A stretch of 30,214 nt of DNA from Candidatus Hydrogenedentota bacterium. Its GTDB lineage: Bacteria; Hydrogenedentota; Hydrogenedentia; Hydrogenedentales; SLHB01. The stretch lies in the NCBI GenBank assembly GCA_029974275.1, contig JARKSN010000094.1:1-30214 (forward strand). Reading direction: 5' to 3'. The number at the start of each line of letters is the position of its first letter. Positions within the stretch are counted from its first letter, which is position 1. The notes under the pieces are model-generated. The model was not told the origin of the DNA. It ran no database searches and saw nothing but the letters and a program-made list of their open reading frames with translations. The position numbers and the translations under genes are program-made. Shown piece by piece: positions 1-17,029 of the stretch.

Positions 1-1921
1 CCAGCGTAATGACCGGTTTCTTGGTGTCGATGACTTTCACCGTGCGCTTTTTCTGCACGGCGGCGTTGCCGGAGGCATCGGTCACGTCGTAGGTCACGTA
101 ATACGTGCCCAACACGTACGTGTTCACGGGATTCACGACGACAATGCTGCTCGTGATGTCGCCGTCGACGTTGTCCATCGCCGTCGCGCCCGGATCAACG
201 TATGCCGCGCCCGCCTGCAACGTGATGCTCGACGACCCTATCAGCGTAATCACCGGCTTGGTCGTATCGGACGACGCGGCGACGACGTTCACCGCGCGCA
301 CGACCGGCGTCGCGGCATTGCCGGCGGCGTCGCTGACATTGTACGCCACCGTGTAGCTGCCGATTGCCGCGGTGTTCACCGTGCTGGTCACAGCGATCTG
401 AGACGTGATATCCCCATCCTTATTGTCCATCGCCGTGGCGCCCGCATCTGTATAGACCGAGTTCTGGGTCACGGTCACGGGGCTGACGCCCAGCATCGTG
501 ATCACCGGAGGCGTCGTATCGGGAGGCTCGACCACGGTCACGGTGCGCGTGACCGGCGTCGCGGCATTGCCCGCCGCATCGCTGACGTTGTACGTCAGAA
601 CCGAGGATCCGATGATGGAAGTATTGACGGATCCCGTCACGACGATTTGCGACGTGATATTGCCGTCCACGTTGTCGCTTGCCGTCGCGCCCGCGTCGAC
701 ATACGCCGTGAATTGGGTCACAAAAACAGGGTTGCTCCCCAAGAGCGTGATCACCGGGGGCGTCGTGTCGGGCGGCGCCACGACATTCACCGTGCGCGTG
801 ACTGGGACCGCCGCGTTCCCCGCCGCATCGCTAGCGTTGTATGTCACTGTATAGCTGCCGATAACGGCGGTGTTCACCGTGCTGGTCACGACGATTTGCG
901 ACGTGATATTGCCGTCCACGTTATCGCTCGCCGTGGCGCCCGCATCGACATACGCCGTGTTCTGGACCACGGAGACGGGGTTGCTGCCCAAGAGCGTGAT
1001 CACCGGAGGCGTCGTGTCGGGCGTCAGGGGGTTGTTGATCCAATCCTGGATGACCTGAAGATAGCAATTCTGCACAAGGATGTTGTATCCCGCCGGGCTC
1101 AAGTGAATGGCATCGCGATTGCTGCTGGTGCCGGCCAATGCCGACAAGGGGGTCGGCCAATCGGGAAATCCGCCGGGATAGGGGTTATAACCACTTGCGA
1201 TCGTTCCCGGGAAGGGGGCGCCCGCGGGGGTATTCTTCCACCACTGCATCAGGCCGAAGTTGGCGACATACGCCACGCGCGACGGGTTGGCTGCGGCGAT
1301 GGCCCGCAGTTCGAGCCCCATGTCCGCGAACGCAGCATTGATCTGGCCCGGATTGGGCGAACCGAGAAACTGCCAGAGCAAAAAGTCGGCGGCGTCGCCT
1401 TGAAGGACGGTGTCCCACAAATTGATATAGTCGTATCCCTGGATCAGCACGCGGATGTTAGGCCGCTGGGCCAAGCAGAAATTGATCACGGTCAGCATGT
1501 TCGCCTTGATAACGGCCTTGTGCTGGGCCCATACGGCAGGATCCATGCCGTTGGTCCAGCCTCCGTTGTCGGTGCCCCACATATCGTTGCCACTCAAGCT
1601 AATATAAACGATATCCACCGTGGGCACCCCTTGCAGGATGAGCGCCACCTTGTCCAACTGGCCAAAATTGCCCATAGGGGTGCTCCATGCAAAATTGGAG
1701 GCCCAGAGCGCCGCCGTGGTCCCTCCAATGGCGGTGTCCGCGCCTAACACCCCCACGCCAGTAACGTTCTGCATGATCTTGTTGTCCCAAATCGCCTGCG
1801 CCCAGCTATCGCCGATGATCAAGATGCGATTCACCGCGGCGAAGGCGTTGGTGGCCAACGTCAGTCCCAGTGTCAACACCAGAACGACGCAGGCCATTCG
1901 GATAAAATGATTGGCTCGCAT
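1..1921 (-). CDS. Secreted SGNH/GDSL hydrolase (esterase) followed by tandem DUF5011-type Ig-like repeats; 3' end lies beyond the left edge
   Basis: Not in the ORF track because it has no stop in the window; hand-translated from ATG 1921 (RBS AGGGAG upstream). Signal peptide MRANHFIRMACVVLVLTLGLTLATNAFA; SGNH blocks ILIIGDSW, DIVYISLSGND and DAIHLSPAGY; then repeats beginning DTTPPVITLLG in the same frame down to base 2. Confidence 0.9.
   Translation of the reverse strand, partial: MRANHFIRMACVVLVLTLGLTLATNAFAAVNRILIIGDSWAQAIWDNKIMQNVTGVGVLGADTAIGGTTAALWASNFAWSTPMGNFGQLDKVALILQGVPTVDIVYISLSGNDMWGTDNGGWTNGMDPAVWAQHKAVIKANMLTVINFCLAQRPNIRVLIQGYDYINLWDTVLQGDAADFLLWQFLGSPNPGQINAAFADMGLELRAIAAANPSRVAYVANFGLMQWWKNTPAGAPFPGTIASGYNPYPGGFPDWPTPLSALAGTSSNRDAIHLSPAGYNILVQNCYLQVIQDWINNPLTPDTTPPVITLLGSNPVSVVQNTAYVDAGATASDNVDGNITSQIVVTSTVNTAVIGSYTVTYNASDAAGNAAVPVTRTVNVVAPPDTTPPVITLLGSNPVFVTQFTAYVDAGATASDNVDGNITSQIVVTGSVNTSIIGSSVLTYNVSDAAGNAATPVTRTVTVVEPPDTTPPVITMLGVSPVTVTQNSVYTDAGATAMDNKDGDITSQIAVTSTVNTAAIGSYTVAYNVSDAAGNAATPVVRAVNVVAASSDTTKPVITLIGSSSITLQAGAAYVDPGATAMDNVDGDITSSIVVVNPVNTYVLGTYYVTYDVTDASGNAAVQKKRTVKVIDTKKPVITL
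26..1018 (-). repeat. Intragenic tandem repeat of ~80-84 aa Ig-like (DUF5011-type) domains: 4 complete units plus the start of a fifth
   Basis: D-T-x-x-P-V-I-T motif starts at 1018, 769, 520, 268 and 28 (spacing 249, 249, 252, 240 nt). Each unit has a DN(V/K)DG(N/D)IT-type motif and YxVxDAxGNAA. Confidence 0.9.
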
Positions 1922-2274
1922 GACATCTCCCTTTCTCAGTTCTTTGTTCACCACTCTACCTGCACCATGGTCTAGTCGAAAGACTAGCTGAGTGTCCCAT
2001 CCGCAACACCATTCCTTTCCCCTGTTCCGGCACGAACACGGGGACGGGAACAAAGCGCCACGCCTCGGAAATGTCACATCGCGCCGCAGGAGCATAGCCT
2101 CTAGACTTGGGATCACCCGTTCCTCATCCGTCGACATGCACTCACGAGTCCCTGCGTTCTGTATCCCAAGACGCACTCACGCGGCATTTTAGTCTTGCTA
2201 CGTTTTCATCCCGCGCTTACGGGGTGGCGCCAGCACGCCCGCACCGTTTTGGAAAACAACTTGCGCTCTTTTGT

Positions 2275-2485: not shown

Positions 2486-3244
2486 TCAGGGGGATGATGA
2501 CGGCGGCGCGGCGGTCGCCTCGTCGATGCTGCCTACGCGGATATCGAGTTCTTCGCGTTTTTGGATGCGGGTGATGCGTCCGTCCGAAATCCAGATGACG
2601 CGATCGCTGGCCGCAAGCATCTTATGGTCGTGCGTGGCGGTGATGATCGTGACGCCTCGCTCTTCCTTGAGCGAGAGAAGCAATTCGATGATGAGCTGCC
2701 CCGTCTTGAGATCGAGATTTCCGGTGGGTTCGTCGGCCAGGATGATGGCGGGATCGTTGGCCAAGGCGCGAGCGATGGCGATTCGCTGTTGCTGTCCGCC
2801 TGAGAGTTCCACGGGACGGTGCGTCAAACGATCGCCAAGGCCTACCTTGTGGAGCAGTCCCGCCGCTTTCTCCCGAGCCTGATCGCTGTCAAGTCCCGCG
2901 AAAACCATCGGCAAGGAAACATTCTCCAGGGCGTTCATGACCGGAATCAGGTTGAAGGTCTGGAAGATATAGCCGATTTTTCGGCATCGCAGCCACGCCA
3001 ACTCATAGATGCCCAGTTGGGAAATGTCCACCTCGTCGATGTACACCTCGCCCGAAGTGGGTTTGTCGAGACCTCCGATCATGTTAAAGAACGTGCTTTT
3101 GCCCGACCCAGAGGGCCCCATGATGCTGACGTATTCGCCCTTGTGAATGGTCGCGGAAATGCCGCAAAGGGCATGGACCTCCTCGTTGCCCATGAGATAC
3201 GTCTTGCGCACGTCCTGCGTGTGAACAATAGCCTGTTCCGGCAT
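2486..3244 (-). CDS. ABC transporter ATP-binding protein, LolD/MacB (type VII) family
   Basis: Start reassigned to ATG 3244 (MPEQAIV, GGAGG RBS). Walker A GPSGSGKST, IGYIFQTFNLIP, signature LSGGQQQR, Walker B ILADEPTGNLD, H-loop THD. Confidence 0.93.
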   Translation of the reverse strand: MPEQAIVHTQDVRKTYLMGNEEVHALCGISATIHKGEYVSIMGPSGSGKSTFFNMIGGLDKPTSGEVYIDEVDISQLGIYELAWLRCRKIGYIFQTFNLIPVMNALENVSLPMVFAGLDSDQAREKAAGLLHKVGLGDRLTHRPVELSGGQQQRIAIARALANDPAIILADEPTGNLDLKTGQLIIELLLSLKEERGVTIITATHDHKMLAASDRVIWISDGRITRIQKREELDIRVGSIDEATAAPPSSSP

Positions 3245-3246
3245 GA

Positions 3247-3951
3247 TTACGCCTCCACGCGCATGGCATCCACCGGCTTCATTCGCGCGGCGGCCATCGC
3301 TGGGTAAACGGCCGCTGCGAGGGCAAGACACGTGCCGCCCGCAACGGCCAACGGAGCGGCCAAGCAAAAAACCTTCACAACCGTTCCCAGGGAGATCGCG
3401 GCAAAGCCCACCGTCAGCCCCATCTGCACATACGCCAACCCAAAACCAGCCGCCATTCCCGCCGCGCTGCCCATGATTCCGATAAAGGCGCTTTCCAAAA
3501 GAAATAGCCGCACGACAAAGCTGTTGAGCGCGCCCAAGCATTTCAACGTGCCGATTTCCCGGTAGCGCTCGGTCACGCTCATGAAAACGGTATTCGTCAC
3601 CCCCACAAAGCACAAAAGTCCGGACAAGACCAGAAGAAGCATCATGCGTTCGCTCTGGCGCGCTTCGCTTTGGGGATCGTTTGACGCCGCCCCAGCGTGT
3701 TCGAGCGCGGCCTGAATGCGCACGTCGTCGCTGGCGCGCAGATCGCGCAGCATGCCGTGGTGACTGAGCGTCGAGACAAAAAGGGCCACGACGACCGCGA
3801 TGCTCGCGAACACCAGCAGAAACCGGCCGCGCCGGTTCTTGACGCTACGCCAACACATCTCGACGGTGCGTCCCCACGGCAGCGAAAGCCGCCCGCGCCC
3901 CATTTCGCCAAATATCGCGCTTGGGGCCATGTCGGCTCGTGCGCGTCTCAT
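3247..3951 (-). CDS. Small FtsX/MacB-like ABC permease with almost no periplasmic domain
   Basis: AGGAGG RBS; four hydrophobic segments; SVTERYREIGTLKCLG..FLLES and YPAMAAARMKPVDAMR are FtsX-domain motifs. Confidence 0.88.
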   Translation of the reverse strand: MRRARADMAPSAIFGEMGRGRLSLPWGRTVEMCWRSVKNRRGRFLLVFASIAVVVALFVSTLSHHGMLRDLRASDDVRIQAALEHAGAASNDPQSEARQSERMMLLLVLSGLLCFVGVTNTVFMSVTERYREIGTLKCLGALNSFVVRLFLLESAFIGIMGSAAGMAAGFGLAYVQMGLTVGFAAISLGTVVKVFCLAAPLAVAGGTCLALAAAVYPAMAAARMKPVDAMRVEA

Positions 3952-3982
3952 GCGCCTGCCTCCTTGCCTCGTTCCAGCCTCC

Positions 3983-6088
3983 CTAAAACGGCAACGTTCT
4001 TGTGCATTGCGCGATCAAAGCGAGGGCGACGGCGATCATCCCGGAAAGGCCGACCCCGCATGCAAACCCCGCCGCCGCCACGGGAATATAGCGATTCCAC
4101 CGCTCCGCGCCAAACTTCCGGCTGAAATAGTAGCGGCTGGCCAAGGCCCCCAACAAGAGCGGAATGCCCGCGTGCAGGGGCTGACCAACGCCCGCCACAA
4201 GGCCATAGAAAAAAATTAGCGGCATGTTCCAATAGGCCATGCACGAGTAGATCGCGACTCCAATGGCGCCAGCTCCCGCGATGACGGCGGGGCTAATGGC
4301 TTGGAGCAACAGCGAATCGGAGGAGCTGTTGGCCGTGAAAATCAAGCAAGCTTGACGCGCCGCCACGGGCCACAACCGGGCCGCAAAGGGAAACTGATCG
4401 GAAGGTATCTGATTCAACTTCCAGAAAAACCACCAAAAGAAAAAGCTGCATACAATGACGATGGGAGTCATGAGCAGTTCGGCTTTGATCAGCGAGGTGA
4501 ATTTTGTGCGCGTCAGCTCAAGCTCCCGAAAGCGCTGCGCCACCGGCCCCATATCAAACAGAGGAATCGGCGCAAACCAGATGTCGATGCCTCGATATCC
4601 ACTCGTGATGAAAGCCGTTTCCCGGAGAAAGGGAACGGTCAGGGGCTGTCCCGTAAGCCCGATGAGCCTGGCGGAAATATACGAATTGAGGGGCGTCCAG
4701 AGAAACCCGAAAAGCACGATGATGATCCATGGAAAGCCGGGCACAAGCATCAGGGATATCGCACAGAAACCGCCAAGACCTATGATCGCCAAGGCGACGG
4801 CGACCCATAACGGCATGTCGCCTCGTTCCCGGCTCGGCCGACGCAACAAGGAGGCGTCAGCGGATCGTTCGCCCGCATCGCCGGATTCCGGCGCGGCGCG
4901 GAGAGCGCTTGAAGATCGCATACGGACGAGAAACATCCGCCCCATGCTGAACAAGCCAACCCCCGCCACGGACGCCGCCAGTCCGATGGTCACGCTCATC
5001 CAAAAATCAAAACTGAGCACCATCTGATTGACAAGCAGGCTTCTGCCCGGACTCCAGTGCTTGAAGACGCCCAAATGCAGCAAAATGGGATTCCCAAACA
5101 CACTGGTCAGCAAGATGGCCGTTACAATGCCAAGGATGAGACGGAAAGGCAGGATCATGCCGGTCATGAAAACGACGGCGTCGAAGCTTATCGAAATGAG
5201 ACTGCCCGGAAGAACCCGCTCCACGCTGCTGGTGAAGTCGATGAAGGGAATCGGCAGGAGCATGATGGGTTTACTCATGACAAGTCCCGTGGCGACCGGG
5301 ATTAAAACGTACAGCGCCCCAAAGACAATGCCGAAGGTGGCCCCCACGCTGAATACGTTCCAGCGCCACGAACGCCTGCCCGCCGCGACGCCCTTTTCAC
5401 GATCGGTCGACTCGGCAAGCGCCGTGGCGCCTTGCGCTGCGATCGCGGCAAGCGGAAACGGCAAGCGCTCGCCGTCCGAGGTGATGCGAAACATGATGTA
5501 TCCGAGTCCAAACCACGTGAAGCGACCCAGGAAATAACTGATGAGCATGATGCCCATCGGCGCGAGCGCGCCCCGCGAGGCGGACCACCACCATTGGCGA
5601 TCGAGCAAGTCGCGTCCGAGAATCGCATGCGAGTCCGCTGGCGGCGCCACCCAATCGGGTATGGAAGCGGCGATGGAGGTCGTTTGAGGCGATTGGAGAA
5701 GATACTGGTTCCAGATAGAACCAGCGACGGGGCCGCCGGCAAGAGCGAGATTGACCAATTGGACCGCGGCGATGGAGGAGGCGACATAGAACAGCACATA
5801 CACCTCCTGGCGCCGAAGGTGCGCGAAACTCCGCCGGGAGAGTTCGGCAAAGAGGATAATGGTCACCCACTCGGCGGCGGGGCCAAGCGACTGACCGGCC
5901 ACAAGCCCCAAGTACACCGACCCCGGCATCATGACCAACGCGACGAAAATCGCGCCGATGACGGTCCTCCTTGAAAAACCGTCCACATAGGGACCTTGCT
6001 CAAGCGACGGGTCCGCGAAGGCCACCGCAAAATCACGTGCGAATTGGGTCTCCTCGGTCTCGCTGCGTCTATGCGGCTTTTCGCTCAC
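3983..6088 (-). CDS. Polytopic membrane protein, OPT (oligopeptide transporter)-like, 701 aa
   Basis: Start reassigned to GTG 6088 (GTGA overlap with the upstream stop, AGGAGG RBS). Many TM helices; N-terminal FSRRTVIGAIF..YLGLVAG, central ERLPFPLAAIAA and C-terminal AAGFACG resemble OPT/YSL motifs. Confidence 0.72.
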   Translation of the reverse strand: MSEKPHRRSETEETQFARDFAVAFADPSLEQGPYVDGFSRRTVIGAIFVALVMMPGSVYLGLVAGQSLGPAAEWVTIILFAELSRRSFAHLRRQEVYVLFYVASSIAAVQLVNLALAGGPVAGSIWNQYLLQSPQTTSIAASIPDWVAPPADSHAILGRDLLDRQWWWSASRGALAPMGIMLISYFLGRFTWFGLGYIMFRITSDGERLPFPLAAIAAQGATALAESTDREKGVAAGRRSWRWNVFSVGATFGIVFGALYVLIPVATGLVMSKPIMLLPIPFIDFTSSVERVLPGSLISISFDAVVFMTGMILPFRLILGIVTAILLTSVFGNPILLHLGVFKHWSPGRSLLVNQMVLSFDFWMSVTIGLAASVAGVGLFSMGRMFLVRMRSSSALRAAPESGDAGERSADASLLRRPSRERGDMPLWVAVALAIIGLGGFCAISLMLVPGFPWIIIVLFGFLWTPLNSYISARLIGLTGQPLTVPFLRETAFITSGYRGIDIWFAPIPLFDMGPVAQRFRELELTRTKFTSLIKAELLMTPIVIVCSFFFWWFFWKLNQIPSDQFPFAARLWPVAARQACLIFTANSSSDSLLLQAISPAVIAGAGAIGVAIYSCMAYWNMPLIFFYGLVAGVGQPLHAGIPLLLGALASRYYFSRKFGAERWNRYIPVAAAGFACGVGLSGMIAVALALIAQCTRTLPF

Positions 6089-9000
6089 GACGCCTCCTCC
6101 GGATCGGCGCGCCCAAAAAGAGCCAAAGCGCGCTGACGATACTTGAGTTGCTCCTCGGGCGCCAGGATGCGCCAAAGCAATAGTTGCTTGCGGAGCGACA
6201 GCAAGAAGCGCGGCAACAGGCGACGCCAATTCTGCTGGTCTCCGCTGTTTCGCGTAGCCGTCAAATGGCATTGATACACGCCGCGATCCTCGCGGAAAAC
6301 GATCCGCAATTCGGCGTCATGGCTGATGCCCAGATCAAAGGGCGCCAGCCACGCCCGAAAATGCAGCGCCGGCGCGGCGCGTCCGGCGCAACCATCCGCC
6401 GAAACGCGCAGATCATCCACGGACAGTTGTCCCACGGAAGCCCCTTGGACGCTTTCGAGAAACTCGTGGACATATGCCTGCATGGCGAAAACAGTCGTTG
6501 GGGCCGACACAAAGGGCAAATAGAACGCGATCCGATCCGTCCCGGCCGAATCATCGGATTCGAAGCCCTCGAAGACCTTCCGGCGGCTTGGCAGGGCTGC
6601 CTGGAAGGCCAGACGGGCAGGATAGATCGCCGACGCCAACACAATGCCCATGGTCAACACGGTGACGAACACGGTGGAGCCTGCCGAATAGTTAAGGCCG
6701 ATGTGCGACAAGACACCGGTTATCTGGAGGAGCTTTGACAGGCCGTTGCCCAGCAAATAGCCCGCCGCCGCGCCCAGCGTCGCATATACAGCCGATTCGG
6801 CGAGAAACAACGAAGCCACGTGCGTGGGAGACAGCCCGACCGAGTTGTACACGAATATCTCGCGCTGGCGCTCGTACACGGATCCCAGCATTGCCCCAAG
6901 CACCATCATGAATCCGAGAAGCAGCGGCACGATCGTTTGACCCGCGCCGCTCAGGCGATTTCGGTTGAGCGAAGCATACAACGTTACATCCCGTCCGTCG
7001 CACGCCAGCAGCGTCAGATTCGAGCGGCGCACGTATGCAACCGCCTCGACATCGGGATCGAGGTCTGTCCCCGTGCGAACGGCCACGCTGCGAAGGGTAA
7101 GGCCGAGGCTGCGAATAGTTTTGAAGGGAACGATCGCCACCCGGTTTACGGGCCAATGCACATATTCCCGGATGGTTGGAACCGTCTGCTCGCCGGCTTG
7201 TTGCGCGTCGAGAAATTGCTGCTGCGCAAAATTCACCGGCGTGAGCGGCTCGCCGTCGATATCGCGCAACGCGTCGAATTTCTTTTCATCGACGATCCCG
7301 ATCAACGGCATATCCCGCCCGAACAACCGCATCGGGCGGCCCAAATCCTTCTCGCCTAGGCCAAGACTGGTCGCCACATGCCCGGGAAGGATGACGCCCG
7401 ATTCGTCGCTCTCCTCGAACCAACGCCCGGCCACAAGCGTCTGGGCCACGCCCGATATCCGCGCCTCGCTAGGCTCCATTCCCACGAGCGCCTCCGCGAC
7501 GAAAAGGGGAGGAGCTTCGCCGGGCTTGGCGGAGTCGGCGGGCGCGAGAGTGAGATCGATCTTCGAAAGCATGCCGGCGGCGTCCGAATAGTGCCAAGCC
7601 CGCCCCGCCACGACGGAATCCATGCCGGGCTTTCCATAAGCCCGCTGCAAGGATTCGTACAGGGGCGCGGGAAGGGGAGCCCATGTCCGATCCCGGCTGA
7701 GAAGACCCTTGTAAACCGGTTCGCCTTGCCTGTGGCGCAGACGCGAGATGCCAGTCTCCGGCACGATCGAGGTGAACGAGAGCAGCGTGAAGGTGACCAG
7801 CACGATGGTCAGCCCCGTGAGGAAGGCGCGTTGCGGTCGGCGGCGGATGTTGGCGATGCCAAGATCGAGGGATCGCATGGCCACGTTGCCAAGAGCTTGA
7901 ATGTCCTCGTGGGCGCCCAAGGTCGCCTGCTTGCGATCGATGAGCATGCGATCAAACTTGCTCAACACCAGCGCGCTCACGGAAACGGCAAGAGAGAGGA
8001 TGATAAAAGCGATCAACACCAGCATGGGCGTGAGGGTGAAACGAAATGCGGGATGAATGATCGCCAACAGCACGAAACTCGCGACGAAAATGCCGGTCAT
8101 GCCCCAAATCCGTCCGGATATCGTGCCTGCATTGAGAACAAGTCTTTCAAGACAATACGAGAACGGCAACAAGAGCAACAAATAGAACAGCACGCCTCGA
8201 ATCATGTTGTTGGCCATGGACAGGAGTTCGCCGTACGCCCCCGTCTCCAGGGCCCAACACCGTTCGGACGCCTGGCGATAGGCGGCGTAATCGCGGCTTT
8301 CCAGCGCGGATTCCGCCACCTCAAGATATCCGCTGGCCTCGCGATGAAGGGATTCGACGCGGGCGTTCCGGACGCCATGCCGCGCAAATTGCTGGAGGCG
8401 CTCCTCGTCGAGATGCCACATCCCGCGCGTGCTGTCGAGGGTCCACGAGGGAATCGTCTCGATCTCCTGAAGTTTGTAGCCCTTTCCGATCGGATCCTCC
8501 GGGGAATTGTTGATGAGCAACAGACGCTTCTCCTTGGCGCCAAGTCCGAGGGTCAACCGGACTCGCAGCGTCGGATCGGTCCACAGGGTGATGCAGTTTT
8601 CCTCGATATCGTCCTTGACATCATCGCTATAACTGACGCCGAATTGGAAAGGCGCGCTGTTCGTCGCCACATCGAGGATTTCGACATCTTGGAGCCCCAG
8701 AAATCCCCGCGGCTCCGTGAGTCCGTACAGGGTGATAGGCTTGCACGGAAAGACCACCGGGCTCAGGTATTGAACCGGACCGGCGATGTTGGCGCGGAAA
8801 GGCTGTTCCTGGGGGCGCGCCTGATCGATGGCAAACAAGATCGCGCCGTCTTCGGACGTTTCCGCAGGCTCGTTGCCGAGTTTTGACATGACCGCCCGGT
8901 ACTCGGCGATCGCATCCGGATTCTGCTCGAGGAAACGGCGAGTGGCCGCGCCAAAAGCATCCAGGACCACCCGGGAAAAACCGAGACCGGACGTAACGTC

Positions 9001-10749
9001 AACAAGCCCATCGAAAACATACGAACCATCCTGAGCGGTGAGCATCACCGGCGCGGCGCGCAGCCCCGCGATCTGCCGGTCGTTGCGATAGGTCTTCAGG
9101 GCGACCAGCCCTCCCGCCAAGCCCCGATTGGGCGTGTAGTCCGTCTTCGAATCCAGCCAGACGACCCGTCCTTCAACGCGGCACATCTTGTTTTCAAGCG
9201 GGGAACTGACGAAAGGCCCCTTCCAGTAGGCGAACGCCAATGCCAGGTTCGCCAAACCCGCATATTCGCCCTCGCGATACCGAATTTGCTGGGCGAGCAT
9301 GTCAAGCCGCATGCGGGACAACGTGTCGTCGGGGGTGTCGACCAAGCGCCGTCCATCGTCGATGGTTCCCAGCGTGACGCCAGGCAACCCGGCCAGTGTG
9401 GGGATTTCACTCTCGAACCCTGTGCGGAACGGAAAATACGTCCACCATGCGCGCCCCATGGTCAAATTGACGCAATCCACAAAGGAAGTTCTCGAATGAA
9501 CCGATACGCTCCCGGGATCGCTCATGTACCCCTTGGCAAAGGCGTCAATCTGCATGGCCAGCGCACTGAACTTGGGACGCAATTGCGTTTCCGCCTGCGC
9601 ACGAAAACCGCCCGCGCAAAACAGCCCTATCCTATCCGAACCGCTCGAAAGGTCCAGCCCGACGAAAAGACCGGGGCGCCCCATGCGGGCCATAAGGGAA
9701 GCGCCATCGGGACCGGTCCAACCGCGCTCGAGTCCATCGGCGAGTGTGCGGACGAAACGGGTCATGCCGGTCATGTGCTGCCCATGGGCTCCCGAAAACA
9801 ACAGATAAATAGGTCTCGGAGGCGGTTGCGGCAGGGCGCGAACATAGCGCGCCAGTTCGAGCAAAACCGCCGCGCCGCAGGCCTGCTCCGCGCCCGGAGC
9901 CAAGGTCGGCGTCACGCTGATAGCGTCGTAATAGGCATGGAATATGATCGGCGTCCGATCCTGGGCGCGCGTTTGGGATGGCGCGGATCCTTGCGTGAGC
10001 TGGGCGAAGAGGTTTCGCGAAGATACCGACTGCCAGTCCATGCGGCACGTGATGGAGACGGTCCGTCCCGTTTGCGCCCGAAGCAAAGGGGCGTCCTCGG
10101 GGCGGACATAGAACCGCGGGATGTTGGCGGGCACGGTGAGGAATTTCTTGCGGGCTTGCGCGCCGCTCGCGATCCGATCGCCGGAGAAAACAATAGCCTT
10201 GCATCCAAACTCCATGACGCCAAGCCAGTTTTCCTCTACGTCCCAGTCCATGAGCAGGATGGAATCCCGAATGGGCTGTCCGGCAATCCGCTCTTCCGAG
10301 GCGGACCCGACATCAAGCAACACGCCGGAAACCCCATCCGGCGCGGTCTGGCTGGTGCGGGCTAAATTGGGCCAAAGGGGGTGCAGTTCCAAGCGAAGAC
10401 CCGCGTCGGACGTGAGCGACGCTTCCTCGACCACGGGGACGGCAACCTCGAAAGTCTGCTCCTCGATGGCATCGACGCCAAGGCCTCGCAATTGTCCAGC
10501 GAGATATTCCGCCGCATGGCGGGCCCCCGGCGATCCCGATATCCGCGAAGGCGCGGACGCCAAGGCCTTGATATGGCCCTCGATCTGGGCGAGATCAAGG
10601 TCTTTGCTCTGATCGAATTCCTGCGTCACCACCTCGAAGGGCCGGGGAGAGCCCATCCATGCCGCCGTGAACACGGTCAATGCAATCACGGCTATGCTGG
10701 CGGCGAACCAACGCATCTTCGAGACAATTCCTCCCTTGGACGCGGTCAT
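6085..10749 (-). CDS. ~1550-aa fusion: N-terminal anchor, M28-peptidase-like (with PA-like insert) extracytoplasmic region, extra TM helices, MacB/FtsX permease, C-terminal soluble domain
   Basis: Start reassigned to ATG 10749 (ATGA overlap with the upstream stop; alternative ATG 10716). M28-fold segments SRISGSPGARHAAEYL, FHAYYD, APGAEQACGAAVLLELAR, RPIYLLFSGAH. MacB segments NIRRRPQRAFLTGLTIVLV and SVYERQREIFVYNSVGLSP..FLAES. Confidence 0.82.
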   Translation of the reverse strand: MTASKGGIVSKMRWFAASIAVIALTVFTAAWMGSPRPFEVVTQEFDQSKDLDLAQIEGHIKALASAPSRISGSPGARHAAEYLAGQLRGLGVDAIEEQTFEVAVPVVEEASLTSDAGLRLELHPLWPNLARTSQTAPDGVSGVLLDVGSASEERIAGQPIRDSILLMDWDVEENWLGVMEFGCKAIVFSGDRIASGAQARKKFLTVPANIPRFYVRPEDAPLLRAQTGRTVSITCRMDWQSVSSRNLFAQLTQGSAPSQTRAQDRTPIIFHAYYDAISVTPTLAPGAEQACGAAVLLELARYVRALPQPPPRPIYLLFSGAHGQHMTGMTRFVRTLADGLERGWTGPDGASLMARMGRPGLFVGLDLSSGSDRIGLFCAGGFRAQAETQLRPKFSALAMQIDAFAKGYMSDPGSVSVHSRTSFVDCVNLTMGRAWWTYFPFRTGFESEIPTLAGLPGVTLGTIDDGRRLVDTPDDTLSRMRLDMLAQQIRYREGEYAGLANLALAFAYWKGPFVSSPLENKMCRVEGRVVWLDSKTDYTPNRGLAGGLVALKTYRNDRQIAGLRAAPVMLTAQDGSYVFDGLVDVTSGLGFSRVVLDAFGAATRRFLEQNPDAIAEYRAVMSKLGNEPAETSEDGAILFAIDQARPQEQPFRANIAGPVQYLSPVVFPCKPITLYGLTEPRGFLGLQDVEILDVATNSAPFQFGVSYSDDVKDDIEENCITLWTDPTLRVRLTLGLGAKEKRLLLINNSPEDPIGKGYKLQEIETIPSWTLDSTRGMWHLDEERLQQFARHGVRNARVESLHREASGYLEVAESALESRDYAAYRQASERCWALETGAYGELLSMANNMIRGVLFYLLLLLPFSYCLERLVLNAGTISGRIWGMTGIFVASFVLLAIIHPAFRFTLTPMLVLIAFIILSLAVSVSALVLSKFDRMLIDRKQATLGAHEDIQALGNVAMRSLDLGIANIRRRPQRAFLTGLTIVLVTFTLLSFTSIVPETGISRLRHRQGEPVYKGLLSRDRTWAPLPAPLYESLQRAYGKPGMDSVVAGRAWHYSDAAGMLSKIDLTLAPADSAKPGEAPPLFVAEALVGMEPSEARISGVAQTLVAGRWFEESDESGVILPGHVATSLGLGEKDLGRPMRLFGRDMPLIGIVDEKKFDALRDIDGEPLTPVNFAQQQFLDAQQAGEQTVPTIREYVHWPVNRVAIVPFKTIRSLGLTLRSVAVRTGTDLDPDVEAVAYVRRSNLTLLACDGRDVTLYASLNRNRLSGAGQTIVPLLLGFMMVLGAMLGSVYERQREIFVYNSVGLSPTHVASLFLAESAVYATLGAAAGYLLGNGLSKLLQITGVLSHIGLNYSAGSTVFVTVLTMGIVLASAIYPARLAFQAALPSRRKVFEGFESDDSAGTDRIAFYLPFVSAPTTVFAMQAYVHEFLESVQGASVGQLSVDDLRVSADGCAGRAAPALHFRAWLAPFDLGISHDAELRIVFREDRGVYQCHLTATRNSGDQQNWRRLLPRFLLSLRKQLLLWRILAPEEQLKYRQRALALFGRADPEEAS

Positions 10750-12698
10750 CCCCAAAAATGATAGACCGGCGTGTTGGCGATGGATCCGAAAATCATCAGC
10801 AAACTTCCCACCGTGAATTCCCCCATCACAAGCCCCACGAAAAACGGCAACGCCTCGCGATACAGTTGGGCGCCGCCGTACCGCGCAATCAACGCCTTGG
10901 CGGCCCACCCGAGAAAAATCGGAAACCACAGCTTTTCCATCGACCATGTCGTGGCAGTGGCATATCCGACCGGGTGCCACAACCACCACGTGAAACGCAT
11001 CCGCAACGCTCCGAGCAAAAGGGAAAAAAGCAGACCGAACAGCGTGGCGAGACTTGCGCCCACGCGCGGCTTCTGGGGAAATGTGACGAGCGACGCCATC
11101 CTGTTCCACGCTTCGCTGGAAAACGCGTCGCCCGCAAGACGCCCGCTGTAGCCATGAACGTACAAGGCATGGAGCACGGCCCAGAAGGCCGCTAGCGCCC
11201 CCGCCACAATCGCGATGACGATGGCCGTCATCATCGACTTCGAGGCGATGCGGCCCACCTGAGCAAGTTTGAACGCCTCCAAGCTGTGGGCGGAAAAATG
11301 GGCGCGATAGGCCCGGTTGAACCAGAAAAGGGACGTGAACGCGGCCAAGTTTTCCTTGCCGAGCGGGGTGGCGCCCAGTGCGTTCATGATGAGAACATCG
11401 GGGCCCATGTGATGCAAATCATGGGCGGGAGGCCCCAATTCCGCACGCATGCGCGCAATCGCCAACGCATACAGGAAGAAGATGGCGAAAAACACCACCA
11501 TTATCTGCCACGAACCGCCGAGCAGCGTCCCTTGGGCGATCAACACGCCCCAGCAGATCAGGAACACAAGGCACAGCGTACGATAGCGCAACGGCTCCTG
11601 CGAATCGTCGGCCCCGTTTGGACGTCCGAGGACCGTCCGAAACACGCCTCGCAAGTGGCGCCGCGACACCCAGATGGCCAGCAGGCCTATCGCGATGTAT
11701 CCCCCGGCCGATTGTTCGCCCAGGAAGGGAACCCCGGGGAGGTCCGTCATGCCCAATAACGACGCAAGCACCAATTGCAGGCGGAAGAAGAGATAAAAAA
11801 ACCAGCAGCTGAAGGCCAGATCGGTAGGCATGAAAAAAGTCAGGCCGATGACGAACGGATAGAGATTGATTTCCGTGCCGGCGATGGCGTTCCACGGCCT
11901 TTCAAGAAGATACTCGTGGAACGTGAACGCCTTCACGATAGGGATCGTGGGAACATGCGGGTAAAAAAAGGAGATTCCGTTCAACAGATCAATGCCGCTG
12001 CCGATCCCGAAAGCAATCCAAAACAAGCGGTTTTTCAGCAGCGTTTCGAGCCCCGTCGCCAAAAGCATGGGAATCTGGATCACGGGGAAGCTCAGTTTCT
12101 CGCGCTCGGTCCATGGATGCCGGAAAAACAGATTCAGGCAGAGAAGCGATCCCATGAGCGCCATCAGAAATAGAAACCAGAACAGGAGCGGCGCGGCCCA
12201 TGCCGCCAACACATCCCACCGGTATAGCGAGGCGTTTCCAGTCGCCAAGCCGCTCATGGCGTCTGGATTGGTTGACAAATATGACCAGCCCGGCACGTAT
12301 TGCAGCAGAAGAGAGTCCCAGTTGTTCTGCGGGTTGGCGAAATATTTCGGAAATCCCAGCATGGGAATCAACACTTGAAGCAGATCGTGACTGCAAAATG
12401 TCCCCGCGATGGCCAGCATGGCGTATATGGTCATGATCTCGGCGGGGCTCAAGGCGGAGCGGGGCCAGCGGCGTTTGACGAAAAGATTCACGAGACAAAT
12501 CAAAAACACGACCGAGGTGACGTGAAAAAAGAGCGAAATCGCCGTTGAGTGGCCTGAGTACCAGATGAGTTCGGACTGGACAACCCACAACGCCAAAACG
12601 GGCATGAGCGCGCAGGCTATCGCCATGGAGCGAGGAGTCGCAAACACGCCGGCAGGCTTTTCTGGCAAGACGGCGTCTTGGCTGGCCCTAGGAATCAT
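10746..12698 (-). CDS. DUF6785/DUF6784-like polytopic membrane protein (OPT-fold related putative transporter), 650 aa
   Basis: Highly hydrophobic. LSPAEIMTIY, WTEREKLSFPVIQIP, ARMRAELG, HPVGY..W...W, PFFVGLVMGE match my recollection of this family; no search was run. Confidence 0.72.
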   Translation of the reverse strand: MIPRASQDAVLPEKPAGVFATPRSMAIACALMPVLALWVVQSELIWYSGHSTAISLFFHVTSVVFLICLVNLFVKRRWPRSALSPAEIMTIYAMLAIAGTFCSHDLLQVLIPMLGFPKYFANPQNNWDSLLLQYVPGWSYLSTNPDAMSGLATGNASLYRWDVLAAWAAPLLFWFLFLMALMGSLLCLNLFFRHPWTEREKLSFPVIQIPMLLATGLETLLKNRLFWIAFGIGSGIDLLNGISFFYPHVPTIPIVKAFTFHEYLLERPWNAIAGTEINLYPFVIGLTFFMPTDLAFSCWFFYLFFRLQLVLASLLGMTDLPGVPFLGEQSAGGYIAIGLLAIWVSRRHLRGVFRTVLGRPNGADDSQEPLRYRTLCLVFLICWGVLIAQGTLLGGSWQIMVVFFAIFFLYALAIARMRAELGPPAHDLHHMGPDVLIMNALGATPLGKENLAAFTSLFWFNRAYRAHFSAHSLEAFKLAQVGRIASKSMMTAIVIAIVAGALAAFWAVLHALYVHGYSGRLAGDAFSSEAWNRMASLVTFPQKPRVGASLATLFGLLFSLLLGALRMRFTWWLWHPVGYATATTWSMEKLWFPIFLGWAAKALIARYGGAQLYREALPFFVGLVMGEFTVGSLLMIFGSIANTPVYHFWG

Positions 12699-14151
12699 GC
12701 GCGGCCTTTCCGGAACGTCGTTGTTCCTTGCGCGTCATGCCCGGAGCGTCACGCCGGTCTTGCCATTCACGCAGCAATGCCCGAAAACCATCAAGGGCGT
12801 TGGGATCCGTCTTGAAGCCCCCCTGATTCCAGTTGTATACCCCAATAAAACGGCAATCGAGATAACCGAGCGTTTTCTCGAAGTGCTCTTTCCACTCTTG
12901 CGCCGTAGACGCGCCCCACCACCATTCCGCCGCGGCCCATGTCCGTGTCCTGCGCCGGGCGAGGGTCTCGCGCAATTCCTCCACGGCGGCGGGATCGCCC
13001 CAATAAAAGCTCCAGCCGGGAATGGAATAGCGGTTGAACGCCGGCCAGAAAGGCAAATGTTCTTCGTAGGGAGGACAATTGCCCCCTTGGTGAGTGAATA
13101 TCTTGTCGCGCGGCATGCCAGCCCGATAGGCGACACGCGCCAAGGTCTGCAAATAACGCTGCGTCGCCAAACCGATATCGTCGCGCGTCAGCGCGCCGCT
13201 GCGCCGTATGCCCGCCGACATTGCTGCGGCATGCCCCAAACCGCCGCACAAGCCAACGCCAAAGTCCACGCCAAGCCGCGGATCGTGCGAGGGATCATCC
13301 GGCCATTTTTCGGCGAATTCGTTGCCGTTGGGGAAATATTGAGCGTTATAGCCGATGCCAGCCTCCCAGCCGACCTTGATGCCGCCGCATAACCACTTCT
13401 TTTCCCTGGGGAGCGCCCGATGCCACGCAGCGACTTGGGCGGCGAGCGGCTTCAAGGCTTGTACATGTTCCGAAACGACCCGAGGGCTGGCGATGTTGGG
13501 GGCGGGCGCGACGCGCACCTGCGATCCCCAGTTGCGCCATCCGATCTTGACGGCATGCTGCGGCCCCCAGTCTGTCCACTCTACATTCCACGCATTTTTC
13601 GGATCGTAGCCGGGTTTGGCCGGGTCCCACCAGTTCCACAAATCGGGTCGTGACTCCCACCAATTCTGACCATCGAACACAAGCAAAAGAGGAACGCTCG
13701 TGTCTTCTGCCAAGGCGCACAAGCGCGCAACCGTGGCCTGGAGCGTTTCTAGGGGAGACAATAAGGTGTTGATGTGGAAAAGAAGGCCGACTCGGAGCGA
13801 AGGAGCATCGGGGATTTGCAGCGTTTCCCGAACGTCGAGAAACAATGCAGGGGTCAGGCTCTGGGGATCGTCCTGACTCCAGCCGCTGTATGGCGCTATG
13901 GAGAAGAACACGTATTGCGGCGTTTCCGTCGTCTTGAGGGGAGCGGCGACCGCCGCGGCGGAGGCGTATGCAACCAGGCATGCAAGGCACAGGAAGACTT
14001 GGAGAAAAAGCTTTGGCGACGGCCTGAAGGCAATTCCGGAAACGCTTCGAAGGTCTTTCCATGGGCGCGGCCGTCTATCGAGAACCTGATGCCCGGCGCG
14101 CCAACAAGAACGGAAAATCGCGCACGTGACCGGTTTGGCCATGCTTGTCAT
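12688..14151 (-). CDS. Secreted hypothetical protein, probable TIM-barrel glycoside-hydrolase-like
   Basis: Long ORF whose stop overlaps the next gene; signal-like KLFLQVFLCLACLVAYASAAA; Trp-rich (WWESRPDLWNWWDP, NVEWTDW, GWRNWG); candidate catalytic Glu in IKVGWE and WAAAEW. Start uncertain (14151 has a G-rich RBS; the true start may be further downstream). Confidence 0.55.
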   Translation of the reverse strand: MTSMAKPVTCAIFRSCWRAGHQVLDRRPRPWKDLRSVSGIAFRPSPKLFLQVFLCLACLVAYASAAAVAAPLKTTETPQYVFFSIAPYSGWSQDDPQSLTPALFLDVRETLQIPDAPSLRVGLLFHINTLLSPLETLQATVARLCALAEDTSVPLLLVFDGQNWWESRPDLWNWWDPAKPGYDPKNAWNVEWTDWGPQHAVKIGWRNWGSQVRVAPAPNIASPRVVSEHVQALKPLAAQVAAWHRALPREKKWLCGGIKVGWEAGIGYNAQYFPNGNEFAEKWPDDPSHDPRLGVDFGVGLCGGLGHAAAMSAGIRRSGALTRDDIGLATQRYLQTLARVAYRAGMPRDKIFTHQGGNCPPYEEHLPFWPAFNRYSIPGWSFYWGDPAAVEELRETLARRRTRTWAAAEWWWGASTAQEWKEHFEKTLGYLDCRFIGVYNWNQGGFKTDPNALDGFRALLREWQDRRDAPGMTRKEQRRSGKAAHDS

Positions 14152-14318
14152 GTTTCCCCCCCTGATGAAGCCGCGAACAGAGACAGAGCCACCTCGCGGC
14201 AGGGATGCGTCTGCATGAAGATATTTCAACGGACGATCAGACGCCGCGACCCGTATTAAACATCGCCTTCCCCGTTGCCCTCATGGTAATGATCCATACC
14301 CCCGTCGTCAATCCAGGT

Positions 14319-15116
14319 TCAACGCGTCCTCGCAAACACGAGCGCCGCGAAAAAACACGCCGCCTGCACAAGCACCATGGCCGGACCTGTCGGCATATCC
14401 CGGACATAGGAGAAAAAAAGACCCGCAACAGCGCCCCCAACGCCCAGGAACACGCTGCATACCGTCATGGCGGCAAAGGAACGCGTAAGAAGACGGGCGG
14501 TCGCGGCGGGAATCACCATGAACGCCGCCACGAGCACGATGCCGACGACTTTAACGGCCGCCACGACGGCAATGGCGATGCATATCGACAGCGCATAGTC
14601 GAGGAGCGCGACGCGCAGACGGTCTGCCTGCGCCAATTCGCGATCAAAGGTGGCGTAGGCCCACAACCCCCACAACGGCCACGTAAACAACGATAACACG
14701 ACGACCCCGCCCGTCATCCAAAGATCGGCTTGGCTGACGGACAGGATGGAGCCGAATAGATAGGAAAACGCATCGCCGGCATAGGTGCGCTTCATGGAAA
14801 GAAAGAGGATGCCAAGCGACATGGAAACGGCGAAAAATATGCCAATGGCGGAATCGCCCCGCACCTGGCCCCGGTGTTGCACCCACACAATGCCTCCAGC
14901 GGCGAGCACGGTCCAAGGCAGGGCGAGATACAGGGGGTTGGCCCCAAGCAGGATGCCGAGGGCGATTCCCCCAAACGCGGCATGGGCAAGGCCTTCGCCC
15001 ATGAACGCCAAGCCCCGCTGGGTGACGAACACCCCGTAGTAGCTCGCCAGAAACCCCACGAGCGCGCCCGCAATAAGCGCCCGCTGCATGAAGGGAAGGG
15101 TCATGGCCTCAAGCAT
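14319..15116 (-). CDS. znuB: Zn/Mn ABC transporter permease (ABC-3 family)
   Basis: Start ATG 15116 (MLEAMTLPFMQRALIAG); GLAFMGEGLAHAAFGG, YLFGSIL, KVVGIVLV..IPAATA. Confidence 0.88.
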   Translation of the reverse strand: MLEAMTLPFMQRALIAGALVGFLASYYGVFVTQRGLAFMGEGLAHAAFGGIALGILLGANPLYLALPWTVLAAGGIVWVQHRGQVRGDSAIGIFFAVSMSLGILFLSMKRTYAGDAFSYLFGSILSVSQADLWMTGGVVVLSLFTWPLWGLWAYATFDRELAQADRLRVALLDYALSICIAIAVVAAVKVVGIVLVAAFMVIPAATARLLTRSFAAMTVCSVFLGVGGAVAGLFFSYVRDMPTGPAMVLVQAACFFAALVFARTR

Positions 15117-15861
15117 GGGTATCCGCTCCCAAACGCCGGTGCCCCGGCAAGTCGTGACCATACGCCTCCCCCAGTTCGGCTTTGCGCAGGACGCTTTCCG
15201 GGGGGCCAAAGGCAATCAGCCTGCGGTGCAGCAGCAAGACATGGCTGGCATGATAGCGCGCGCCTTCCCAGTCATGCGTGACCATCAGCACGGTGGCGCC
15301 GGTCTGTTCGGGATGGGCCTCGAGAATGTGGTACATGTCCGCCTCGGCCGTGGCGTCCATTCCCGAAGCCGGCTCATCGAGTAAAATCAACTGCGGCTTG
15401 CGAACCAGGCATCGCGCCAGGTATACGCGCTGCAATTCGCCCCCGGAAAGCTGGGCAAGGGTGCGGTTCGTCAGATGTCCCGCGCCAACCAAATCGAGGG
15501 CCTCGCGGGCTTGGTCCCTCTCTTCCCCGCTGGGACGCCACGGCCATCGGCGCCGTAGCCCCGACACCACGAGATCAAGCGCGCGCGCGGGAAACGATGT
15601 GTCGAGCGTCTTGATCTGCGGCACATACCCGATGCGCATGGGGCTGATCTTTTCCGGAGCCTCTCCAAAAAGGCGCACGATCCCGCGCGAGGCCGGCACA
15701 AGCCCCAGCAAGGCCCGCAGCAGTGTGGATTTTCCGGCGCCGTTCGGCCCGATCACCGCCGTAAACGAGGCCTCCGGCACAACGACCGTGACGCCGTCGA
15801 GCGCGAGACGGTCGCGCATGCGGACAGATAGGCTGCGGGTTTCAATCGCCGGCGCGTTCAC
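15109..15861 (-). CDS. znuC: Zn/Mn ABC transporter ATP-binding protein
   Basis: GPNGAGKST, IGYVPQ, LSGGELQR, LLDEP, VTHD; GTGA overlap with the binding-protein gene. Confidence 0.9.
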   Translation of the reverse strand: MNAPAIETRSLSVRMRDRLALDGVTVVVPEASFTAVIGPNGAGKSTLLRALLGLVPASRGIVRLFGEAPEKISPMRIGYVPQIKTLDTSFPARALDLVVSGLRRRWPWRPSGEERDQAREALDLVGAGHLTNRTLAQLSGGELQRVYLARCLVRKPQLILLDEPASGMDATAEADMYHILEAHPEQTGATVLMVTHDWEGARYHASHVLLLHRRLIAFGPPESVLRKAELGEAYGHDLPGHRRLGADTHA

Positions 15862-16748
15862 TTCAACAAATCGCTCAATTGCCGGGCGTTGTGAAGAATA
15901 AGGTCGGAATATGTTTGCCGCCCCCCTGAACCGCCTTCAACGTCGATCTCGCCCAAGGCGACGCCCGCCGCCTCGGCAACAACCTGCGCCGGACGTTTCG
16001 GCAGCGTCGGCTCGGTGAACACGGCCTTGGCGCCGGTTTTGCGCACCGTTTTCACCACCGATTCGATATACCGCGGGGTGGGCTCCTTGCCGGGGGAAGG
16101 CTCTATGCTGCCCGCATGCACAAGGCCATAGCGCTTCAAAAAATACCCCATCGACGGATGAAACGAAACCACGGAAGCCCCCTTGATCGGCGCGACAATC
16201 TCCGCCGCTTCCCGGTCAAGCCGATCGAGATCAGATGCAAACCGGGCGGCATTCGCCACATATTCCGGTTTCCCCTCCGGATCAACGCCGCCCAACCATT
16301 CGACCAGCGCCGGCAACAACGCTTTTACGCAAACCGGGTCCATCCAAAAATGAGGATCGAACGAACGCGCCCCGCACTCTTCCGCCGCGTCGTCATGCCC
16401 CTGCTCGTGATCATGATCGAGGACGGGCGGCGCGAGCCGCAACGCCGCGGGCAGCGCATCCATCAACACAAACGTCTTCTTCGCGGGAAATTTCGCCGCC
16501 CATCCATCGAGTTCCGGCGACACCATCACCAAGGCCGCCGCCGACTCGACGGCGACCATGTCGGACGGTCGCGGCGAATACGTGTGCGGCGACGCGCCCG
16601 GGGCGATAAGCCGCGTCACCTCAGCGCGCGTTCCCGTCACCTCGCGCACAATCGCCGCCGCCGGATGTATCGTCGCCACATACGACGGCTTGTCCGCCGC
16701 CGCGCCCGCCAACGGCGCAAGCAGAAAAAACGCCATCCATCGCATCAT
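15858..16748 (-). CDS. znuA: Zn/Mn ABC transporter substrate-binding protein (cluster A-I)
   Basis: Signal peptide; GASPHTYSP, His/acidic loop DHDHEQGHDD (typical of Zn binders), DPHFW, HPSMGY, EPTP. Start is ATG 16748 or 16760. Confidence 0.88.
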   Translation of the reverse strand: MMRWMAFFLLAPLAGAAADKPSYVATIHPAAAIVREVTGTRAEVTRLIAPGASPHTYSPRPSDMVAVESAAALVMVSPELDGWAAKFPAKKTFVLMDALPAALRLAPPVLDHDHEQGHDDAAEECGARSFDPHFWMDPVCVKALLPALVEWLGGVDPEGKPEYVANAARFASDLDRLDREAAEIVAPIKGASVVSFHPSMGYFLKRYGLVHAGSIEPSPGKEPTPRYIESVVKTVRKTGAKAVFTEPTLPKRPAQVVAEAAGVALGEIDVEGGSGGRQTYSDLILHNARQLSDLLK

Positions 16749-16956: not shown

Positions 16957-17029
16957 GCCCCGCGTCGGCGGAGTCGTATTCCGTGCCCGGCCAAGCGAGT
17001 GCATCCATCACCGGGGGGGCGGTATAGCA

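Follow-up and report, generated by a model that had tools for sequence, protein, structure and literature searches.

A conserved five-gene system joining a type VII ABC unit to predicted OPT-fold permeases in a Candidatus Hydrogenedentota genome

Five adjacent genes on a contig of a Candidatus Hydrogenedentota bacterium (GenBank assembly GCA_029974275.1, contig JARKSN010000094.1) join an ATP-binding cassette (ABC) unit of type VII to membrane proteins of predicted OPT fold. The whole stretch analyzed, positions 1-30,214 in forward-strand numbering, is called the window, and all coordinates are window positions; the five genes lie at 2486-12698, and their products are named P1 to P5. Gene neighborhood, phylogenetic profile and natural fusion, three independent lines of evidence, place the genes together, and the five proteins very probably function jointly. 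The permease fold, the outer domain and the kind of ATPase make the unit a type VII ABC system, and no published description of the whole system was found. We give a probability of roughly 55% to the reading that the five genes encode one envelope machine in which an ATP-driven motor moves an outer head and OPT-fold carriers give the path for uptake.

Locus layout and recurrence across phyla

The five genes are consecutive and co-oriented, and all were confirmed as open frames:

10746-12698, minus strand: P1, 650 amino acids (aa), polytopic membrane protein of the DUF6785+DUF6784 family
6085-10749, minus strand: P2, 1554 aa, ATG start at 10749, giant subunit with a PA/M28-like head and one FtsX module
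3983-6088, minus strand: P3, 701 aa, GTG start at 6088, permease of predicted OPT/Yellow-Stripe fold
3247-3951, minus strand: P4, 234 aa, minimal FtsX permease
2486-3244, minus strand: P5, 252 aa, LolD/MacB-type ABC ATPase

The P1 stop and P2 start codons overlap as ATGA (10746-10749), the P2 stop and P3 start codons overlap as GTGA (6085-6088), and gaps of 31 nucleotides (nt) and 2 nt separate P3 from P4 and P4 from P5. An earlier reading of the DNA letters (here, the sequence-only reading) had described this tight, co-oriented packing, and its coordinates were reproduced exactly; it had also remarked on the lack of a classical solute-binding protein, a membrane-fusion protein and TolC, none of which was found within the five genes by Pfam and NCBIfam. 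Homologues of 699-706 aa give 100% coverage of P3 at its called length, and a scan of the locus for promoters and terminators returned counts no higher than chance. The window genome (completeness given as 100%) has one copy each of P1, P2, P3 and P4, all in cis; the window is the complete, single-copy, all-in-cis form of the system.

Relatives of P3 were collected from bacterial contigs, one genome per species (at least 586 relatives, best 80 loci kept), and hidden Markov models built from the window proteins were run on the open reading frames (ORFs) of these 80 loci, with lineages as labeled in the sequence records. Of the 74 loci that have 1 kb or more of upstream sequence, 67 carry P2 upstream of P3 in the same orientation, and in 42 of these the two are no more than 300 nt apart; 65 loci could be evaluated for the motor genes, with P4 found in 35 and P5 in 32. 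The loci come from Planctomycetota, Armatimonadota, Latescibacterota, Gemmatimonadota, Abditibacteriota, Hydrogenedentota, Sumerlaeota, Lentisphaerota and Desantisbacteria, and because the arrangement recurs across phyla, it is far beyond chance.

Gene order by lineage was read from 46 loci with full flanks. All five genes occur in Planctomycetota-type, Hydrogenedentota and Desantisbacteria loci. The Armatimonadota order is P2-P3, an unknown protein of ~320 aa, a PqqD-like protein and P4-P5 (17/18 loci), with P1 in only 1 of the 18. The order is P2-P1-P3 in Latescibacterota (11/12) and Gemmatimonadota (5/5), where neither P4 nor P5 was found inside 10 kb, and P2-P3 stand alone in Abditibacteriota (4/4); locus L022 belongs to a complete genome whose label is that of an Abditibacteriota isolate.

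A phylogenetic profile over 135 genomes of the window's phylum (P4 orthologue threshold, E 1e-30 or better) gave 26 carriers of P4, 24 of P3 and 26 of DUF6785. P1, P3 and P4 are all present in the same 24 genomes, and 108 have none of the three; the three discordant genomes are 80-84% complete (G125, P1 and P4; G047, P4 only; G013, P1 only). The system is patchy inside one family (16-17 of 53 genomes), and P4 and P3 lie on different contigs in several carriers, which makes the co-occurrence evidence independent of adjacency.

Natural fusions were found as well. On a Latescibacteria chromosome, one 2111-aa frame (L102:1167-7502) carries M28, FtsX, DUF6785 and DUF6784 matches; its FtsX match ends at 1301 and DUF6785 starts at 1474, with ~170 residues between them at the place of the P2 C-terminal domain. 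P0243, a cluster representative of 2120 aa, has the same build. It came from a Pfam scan of the six longest among the best 150 representatives of the P2 head family, in which the other five carry an extra LysM, Big_5 or WCX domain. A dedicated search for P1 relatives of greater length with fused domains scored none, itself weak evidence, and two other very long frames of genome G003 were ruled out as DUF6785 fusions; the ORFs downstream of them (869 and 897 aa) gave no Pfam match. Co-occurrence was one of the checks that the sequence-only reading had proposed for its central claim, one conserved system joining a type VII ABC unit to OPT-fold proteins, and the P2-P3 linkage, the phylogenetic profile and the P2-DUF6785/6784 fusions all bear that claim out.

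The same data bear on a simpler explanation, in which two or three independent transporters, an orphan FtsX-type ABC unit and proton-driven OPT carriers, are merely adjacent. OPT carriers do function alone in plants and fungi (PMC9691689, in part), and no P2 was found within 10 kb at 7 of the 74 P3 loci (L032, L033, L046, L060, L063, L064 and L077). Mere adjacency is hard to square with single-chain fusions, with a patchy but near-perfect co-occurrence over 135 genomes that extends to unlinked genes, or with the start/stop codon overlaps in the window, and we consider it very improbable.

Predicted folds and architecture of the proteins

P3 has no match in Pfam, and both P3 and P1 are without PF03169, the OPT model, at E 0.01 or better. 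The P3 family borders OPT by sequence: PF03169 is precomputed on 7 of the best 120 relatives, and 2 of 22 aligned relatives reach it at E 1 or better. An AlphaFold2 (AF2) model of P3 made from 22 relatives (predicted local distance difference test score [pLDDT], 73.5; predicted template modeling score [pTM], 0.77) had a sole convincing Foldseek match, barley Yellow-Stripe 1 (HvYS1; 7wsr_A, E 1.2e-9, probability 1.00, TM-score 0.57/0.65), with the runner-up above E 0.03. VIA-align superposed 545 residues of the model on HvYS1 (Z 21.1; root mean square deviation, 4.3 Å), and the next match had Z 4.0. As modeled, P3 is an OPT/YS1-fold protein, too divergent for the Pfam OPT model.

P1 is a member of DUF6785 (E 2e-141; 472.2 bits, cut-off 25) and DUF6784 (E 5e-31; 107.3 bits, cut-off 26.4), with both scores above the Pfam gathering thresholds. 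The P1 and P3 family profiles align by hhalign over 546 collinear columns (probability 41.5%, E 2.7e-4), and PF03169 is found on 11% of the members of one Atlas cluster of DUF6785/6784 proteins. BLASTP of P1 against P3 was not significant (E 0.026), and the sequence profiles of the two families gave no meaningful match to PDB sequences. P1 is probably, not demonstrably, of OPT fold. Where the sequence-only reading had two OPT-fold proteins, P3 stands on its modeled similarity to YS1, and P1 is retained as the probable second, on the hhalign result and the Atlas share.

A short Glu-Arg-Leu motif stands beside membrane segments in P2 (residues 868-870), P3 (~207-212) and P1 (~198-205, where the window version is Glu-Lys-Leu), with Phe-Pro two residues further on in P3 and P1. 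The motif does not vary within the P2 family or the P3 family, and its copies in P1 and P3 align with each other; it may be a shared contact motif or simply coincidental.

P2 matches Pfam FtsX (E 2e-11, residues 1276-1382) and, partially, Peptidase_M28 (E 1.6e-5, residues 263-333). Its parts are as follows:

residues 12-34, minus strand: N-terminal anchor, by hydropathy
8206-10647 (residues 35-848), minus strand: head, PA/M28 fold followed by beta-rich domains and three long helices
7951-8205 (residues 849-933), minus strand: three extra transmembrane helices, by hydropathy and invariant columns
6604-7830 (residues 974-1382), minus strand: FtsX module, by Pfam FtsX and a MacB profile match
6088-6603 (residues 1383-1554), minus strand: C-terminal cytoplasmic domain, by hydropathy and invariant columns

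Within the FtsX module, hydropathy places the first transmembrane helix (TM1) at 974-998, an outer domain of ~265 aa at 999-1265 and TM2-4 at 1266-1382, with the TM2 segment at 1266-1292. The best PDB match to a profile of the C-terminal half was MacB (5lil, E 8e-19), and chains of YtrF, LolF, LolC and LolE were also matched; MacB_PCD was found in the P2 relatives P0243 and P0174. Few parts of P2 are as conserved as the three extra helices (invariant L857, P862, E868, R869, F888, F892 and H899-F902). A second, degenerate FtsX unit in the N-terminal half of P2 was ruled out, as the extra helices reached hhalign probabilities of 0.3-3.6% against FtsX TM2-4 or P4 (control, P2 FtsX module versus P4, 98.7%); P2 therefore has one FtsX module and P4 is the second, making the usual two. 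The C-terminal domain has invariant columns of its own (W1467, P1470, D1472, G1474, W1508, R1510 and others) and gave no PDB match by profile and no usable Atlas match.

P2 head models well (AF2; pLDDT 88.9, pTM 0.91). By Foldseek, its first ~500 residues match M28 aminopeptidases with a PA domain (2ek8, E 1.5e-25, then BSAP, PaAP and 3iib) and, further down, transferrin receptor 1 and glutamate carboxypeptidase II/III (E ~1e-18 to 1e-20), while the sequence profile of the head finds 2ek8 in the PDB (E 8e-23) and, weakly, nicalin, nicastrin and the transferrin receptor. The predicted fold is that of M28 with an inserted PA domain. The active-site region was read from a HMMER alignment to 2ek8, with residues counted over 29 heads; the comparison covers the aligned stretch, the last two M28 metal ligands falling outside it, and catalytic and ligand roles are assigned to the motif positions as in family M28. 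Among the 29 heads, 21 have Tyr and 3 have His at the His position of the HxD motif, 25 have Glu in place of the bridging Asp, all 29 have His in place of the catalytic Glu, and 24 have Gly or Phe at the ligand Glu adjoining the catalytic Glu. The head thus departs from the canonical M28 site of co-catalytic metal ligands and a Glu-Glu pair, and the remodeled site is strictly conserved (invariant D275, S278, P281, P285, H322 and G328), which indicates ligand binding. The head is probably a binding or receptor module and not a peptidase, in keeping with the substrate-handling role that the sequence-only reading had given to its M28-like domain; the fold, shared with the transferrin receptor and glutamate carboxypeptidase II, and the loss of the catalytic Glu both fit that role. 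The head family is large, with 1401 cluster representatives at E 1e-30 or better.

Five very long P2 relatives (P0174, P0237, P0241, P0248 and P0266; 2312-3053 aa) carry additional domains, either LysM or Big_5 (Ig-like) on the N-terminal side of the M28-like head or WCX at the C terminus; one long head relative has LysM and three have Big_5 in that N-terminal position. These additions suggest heads adapted to polymer-bound or wall-bound ligands.

P4 matches Pfam FtsX (E 6e-15). The outer loop between its TM1 and TM2 has only ~35-45 residues, making the P2/P4 pair strongly asymmetric, and its family alignment has 27 invariant columns, 11 of them in a single run just after TM2 (residues 128-140). 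P4 is presumed to be the heterodimer partner of the P2 FtsX module. P5 matches ABC_tran (E 4e-34), and its Walker A, signature, Walker B and H-loop motifs are intact in translation; its top NCBIfam models are LolD, MacB, YbbA, DarD and FtsE, of which LolD and MacB are best, and the cut-offs of LolD, MacB, YbbA and FtsE are all missed. The assignment to type VII draws on a four-helix FtsX permease domain in both P2 and P4, the large TM1-TM2 outer domain of P2, and a cognate ATPase of LolD/MacB/FtsE type, which adjoins P4 both in cis and in unlinked pairs.

Unlinked motors were sampled in five genomes, three of Latescibacterota and two of Abditibacteriota, in which P2-P3 have no neighboring ATPase. 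Exactly one strong P4 orthologue (237-247 bits, the next-best FtsX match reaching at most 90 bits) lies elsewhere in each, adjoined in 5/5 by a P5 orthologue, and P5 identity to orthologues in these two lineages is 66-68%. The five genomes hold 5, 1, 5, 1 and 7 P2 giants. Likewise, 25 of the 26 carriers in the window phylum have a single P4, with 1-7 DUF6785 matches per genome. The motor is in cis with one module in the window genome and unlinked in 3/3 sampled multi-module genomes. Gene counts alone thus suggest that one P4-P5 motor can be shared among several P2/OPT modules.

Proposed mechanism and alternatives

In the reading that we prefer, two copies of P5 would power an FtsX heterodimer, made of P4 and the module inside P2, which would work as a LolCDE-like type VII mechanotransducer without a substrate channel of its own. 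ATP binding and hydrolysis by P5 would move the FtsX pair, and the motion would be passed to the outer domains of P2, which would capture or release a peptide-like or chelate-like solute, with the head as the ligand-binding receptor. OPT-fold P3, and probably P1, docked to P2, perhaps through its conserved extra helices or its C-terminal domain, would supply the transmembrane path; the solute would be fed to these carriers, or its entry gated there, for uptake. One such motor could serve several P2/OPT modules. A physical association of P2 with the OPT-fold proteins is likely, and the direction of transport is an even call, leaning on two arguments for uptake: characterized OPT/YSL proteins are importers (PMC9691689 and PMC3061005, both in part), and multiplied modules fit nutrient diversity. 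Our best guess for the cargo is a peptide-like or chelate-like solute.

Several points weigh against this reading. Characterized OPT carriers are proton driven and need no ATPase (PMC9691689, in part), which leaves the role of ATP unexplained. The case for an OPT fold of P1 consists of an hhalign probability of 41.5% and of PF03169 on 11% of the members of one Atlas cluster, and 0 of 21 P1 relatives reach that Pfam model (threshold, E 1 or better). To the seven P3 loci without a nearby P2 must be added that related genomes are not independent samples, so that the co-occurrence counts (24/135 and 108/135) overstate their statistical weight. Motor sharing rests on the three Latescibacterota genomes with 5-7 giants, and the two Abditibacteriota genomes have one giant yet an unlinked motor. 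Finally, the PqqD-like companion hints at a peptide substrate and fits export as well as import.

Export is the most serious of the alternatives to uptake by one machine: the OPT-fold proteins would carry a cytoplasmic product, such as a peptide, outward, and the ABC unit with its head would handle it in the periplasm in a MacB-like way, releasing it, passing it on or expelling it. The type VII ABC systems that have been characterized work outward or at the envelope (PMC5985334 and PMC12646458, both in part), and the PqqD-like gene travels with the motor in two lineages. In Armatimonadota it lies just upstream of P4, next to the ~320-aa gene in the interval between P3 and P4 (L043:12000-13405, L035:11962-13385 and L075:12057-13477); in Abditibacteriota it immediately precedes the unlinked P4-P5 pair in 2/2 genomes (L082:2173-2604 and L083:946-1440). 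PqqD-like domains are named by NCBIfam as peptide chaperones of pathways for ribosomally synthesized and posttranslationally modified peptides. Against export, no conserved precursor peptide or modifying enzyme was seen near the loci, the cluster is without a membrane-fusion protein or TolC, PqqD has no match in the window genome, and the characterized OPT/YSL proteins are the importers cited above. We regard export as doubtful, at well below even odds.

A second alternative is envelope remodeling in the manner of FtsEX, with ATP switching the head or a bound partner on a wall or envelope polymer and the OPT carriers recycling fragments. FtsEX-EnvC and YbbAP-TesA couple type VII ABC units to hydrolases or activators (PMC12646458, in part), and the LysM and Big_5 domains of the long head relatives would suit a wall-directed head. 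The head has lost the M28 catalytic Glu in 29/29 cases, no conserved hydrolase gene lies beside the system, the NCBIfam FtsX models score far below their cut-offs, and 5-7 paralogous modules per genome fit nutrient diversity better than a housekeeping role at the wall; we think remodeling unlikely, and more so than export.

Within the uptake reading, a more specific form is possible and is offered tentatively, as the less probable version: a hybrid transporter class in which a type VII ABC unit moves no substrate of its own and loads or gates OPT/YS1-fold carriers through an M28-derived receptor head, one motor driving up to seven substrate-specific modules per genome, with the Tyr-Tyr-Asp/Glu/His site of the head perhaps binding a metal or chelate.

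Flanking genes, known systems and significance

The remaining features of the window are as follows:

2-2176, minus strand: large exported protein that continues past the window end, with an N-terminal domain of unknown family followed by at least four Ig-like/HYR repeats of bacterial surface type
12688-14229, minus strand: ORF of 513 aa with one hydrophobic segment, its stop overlapping the P1 start by 11 nt
14319-16760, minus strand: ZnuABC-type operon (ABC-3 permease, ATPase and ZnuA binding protein), directly upstream and a separate operon
15858-16760, minus strand: ZnuA-type binding protein, part of that operon
16901-18514, minus strand: ORF of 537 aa, no Pfam family
18495-20375, minus strand: ORF of 626 aa, no Pfam family
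20437-22044, plus strand: ORF of 535 aa, no Pfam family
23357-23770: BlaI/MecI-type repressor gene

The 513-aa ORF may be cotranscribed with P1 in the window; it was rejected as a member of the system, since none of the 80 loci has a homologue and Pfam, NCBIfam and the PDB all gave no match. Other flanks are an alanyl-tRNA synthetase, a DegT aminotransferase and one AXE1 esterase. The relatives show no conserved flanking family, save the PqqD-like gene and the ~320-aa unknown cytoplasmic protein of Armatimonadota, and flanking genes were therefore rejected as a guide to the substrate. The sequence-only reading had taken flanking carbohydrate enzymes to favor oligosaccharide or glycopeptide uptake, a suggestion that finds no support on either count, the flanks being ZnuABC, alanyl-tRNA synthetase, DegT and a single esterase and not being conserved. 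The adjacency of ZnuABC is noteworthy given the metal-chelate Yellow-Stripe fold predicted for P3; relatives do not share it. Metagenomes from wastewater, activated sludge and anaerobic digesters contain near-identical DNA, with 5 runs containing at least half of the sampled words, and no RNA runs were among the listed sequencing runs that share window DNA.

Among known systems, LolCDE is like the present one in having two different FtsX-type permease units and a LolD-type ATPase, and LolD is the best model for P5. It is unlike it in that the Lol cut-offs of NCBIfam are missed (P5, 230.6 against 307.75 bits for LolD TIGR02211; P4, 37 against 362.45; P2, 21.6 against 473), in the 1554-aa giant with its M28-like head and three extra transmembrane helices, in a P4 almost without an outer domain, and in the OPT-fold permeases as obligate companions; no link to LolA or LolB was seen. 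MacB shares the best structure match of the P2 FtsX module (5lil), a MacB-like periplasmic core in P2 relatives and the MacB/LolD type of ATPase. MacAB-TolC differs, since here the ATPase is a separate gene, the permease is a heterodimer and not a homodimer, and neither a MacA adaptor nor TolC was found in the five genes or the upstream ORF by Pfam and NCBIfam.

YbbAP-TesA and FtsEX-EnvC likewise pair an ATP-driven FtsX-type unit with a periplasmic partner of hydrolase fold (PMC12646458, in part); in the present system the hydrolase fold is fused into the permease and has lost its catalytic Glu, and the partners are polytopic OPT-fold permeases. Membership in FtsEX failed, with the NCBIfam FtsX models far under their cut-offs for P4 and P2. 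The OPT/YSL family (PF03169, TC 2.A.67; HvYS1, PDB 7WSR/7WST) is superposed by the P3 model over 545 residues. HvYS1 functions by itself, as a homodimer driven by protons (PMC9691689, in part), whereas P3 and P1 of the window fall below PF03169 and are locked to an ABC unit, sometimes by fusion.

PA/M28 proteins of the transferrin receptor and nicastrin type are used as receptors. The P2 head shares the PA and M28 folds with the transferrin receptor, glutamate carboxypeptidase II, nicastrin and nicalin and has lost the canonical site, as have the nonenzymatic members; it differs from them in being bacterial, in its extra beta-rich domains and in being built into an FtsX-type membrane protein. 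Energy-coupling factor (ECF) transporters have energizing modules that are either dedicated or, in group II, shared, and TonB-ExbBD serves many receptors; the resemblance to one motor pair with several modules elsewhere is one of analogy only, with no relationship in sequence or fold.

A full-text literature search found no paper on DUF6785/DUF6784, and among the matches listed, judged by title or the start of the abstract, none describes FtsX, MacB or M28, or type VII ABC or mechanotransmission, together with OPT or Yellow-Stripe proteins. A term search of the available text of a MacB-family review (PMC5985334) gave no mention of M28, aminopeptidase, oligopeptide or uptake, and the four Escherichia coli type VII systems treated in the available part of a 2025 YbbAP-TesA paper (PMC12646458) include none like the five-gene set. 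According to a 2011 OPT survey (PMC3061005, in part), prokaryotic OPT homologues had not yet been characterized biochemically.

Type VII ABC systems are defined by their coupling partner, be it an efflux duct, a lipoprotein chaperone or a wall hydrolase, and a lock to permeases of secondary-transporter fold would, if true, be a new use of mechanotransmission. It would also give a first functional handle on the prokaryotic OPT-like proteins and on DUF6785/6784, and if the head does bind a metal or chelate, the modules would be bacterial counterparts of Yellow-Stripe chelate uptake. The system is common, with at least 586 P3 relatives, 1401 head clusters and 5-7 modules in Latescibacterota, and it may be a major route of nutrient acquisition in uncultured heterotrophs of sludge, soil and sediment.

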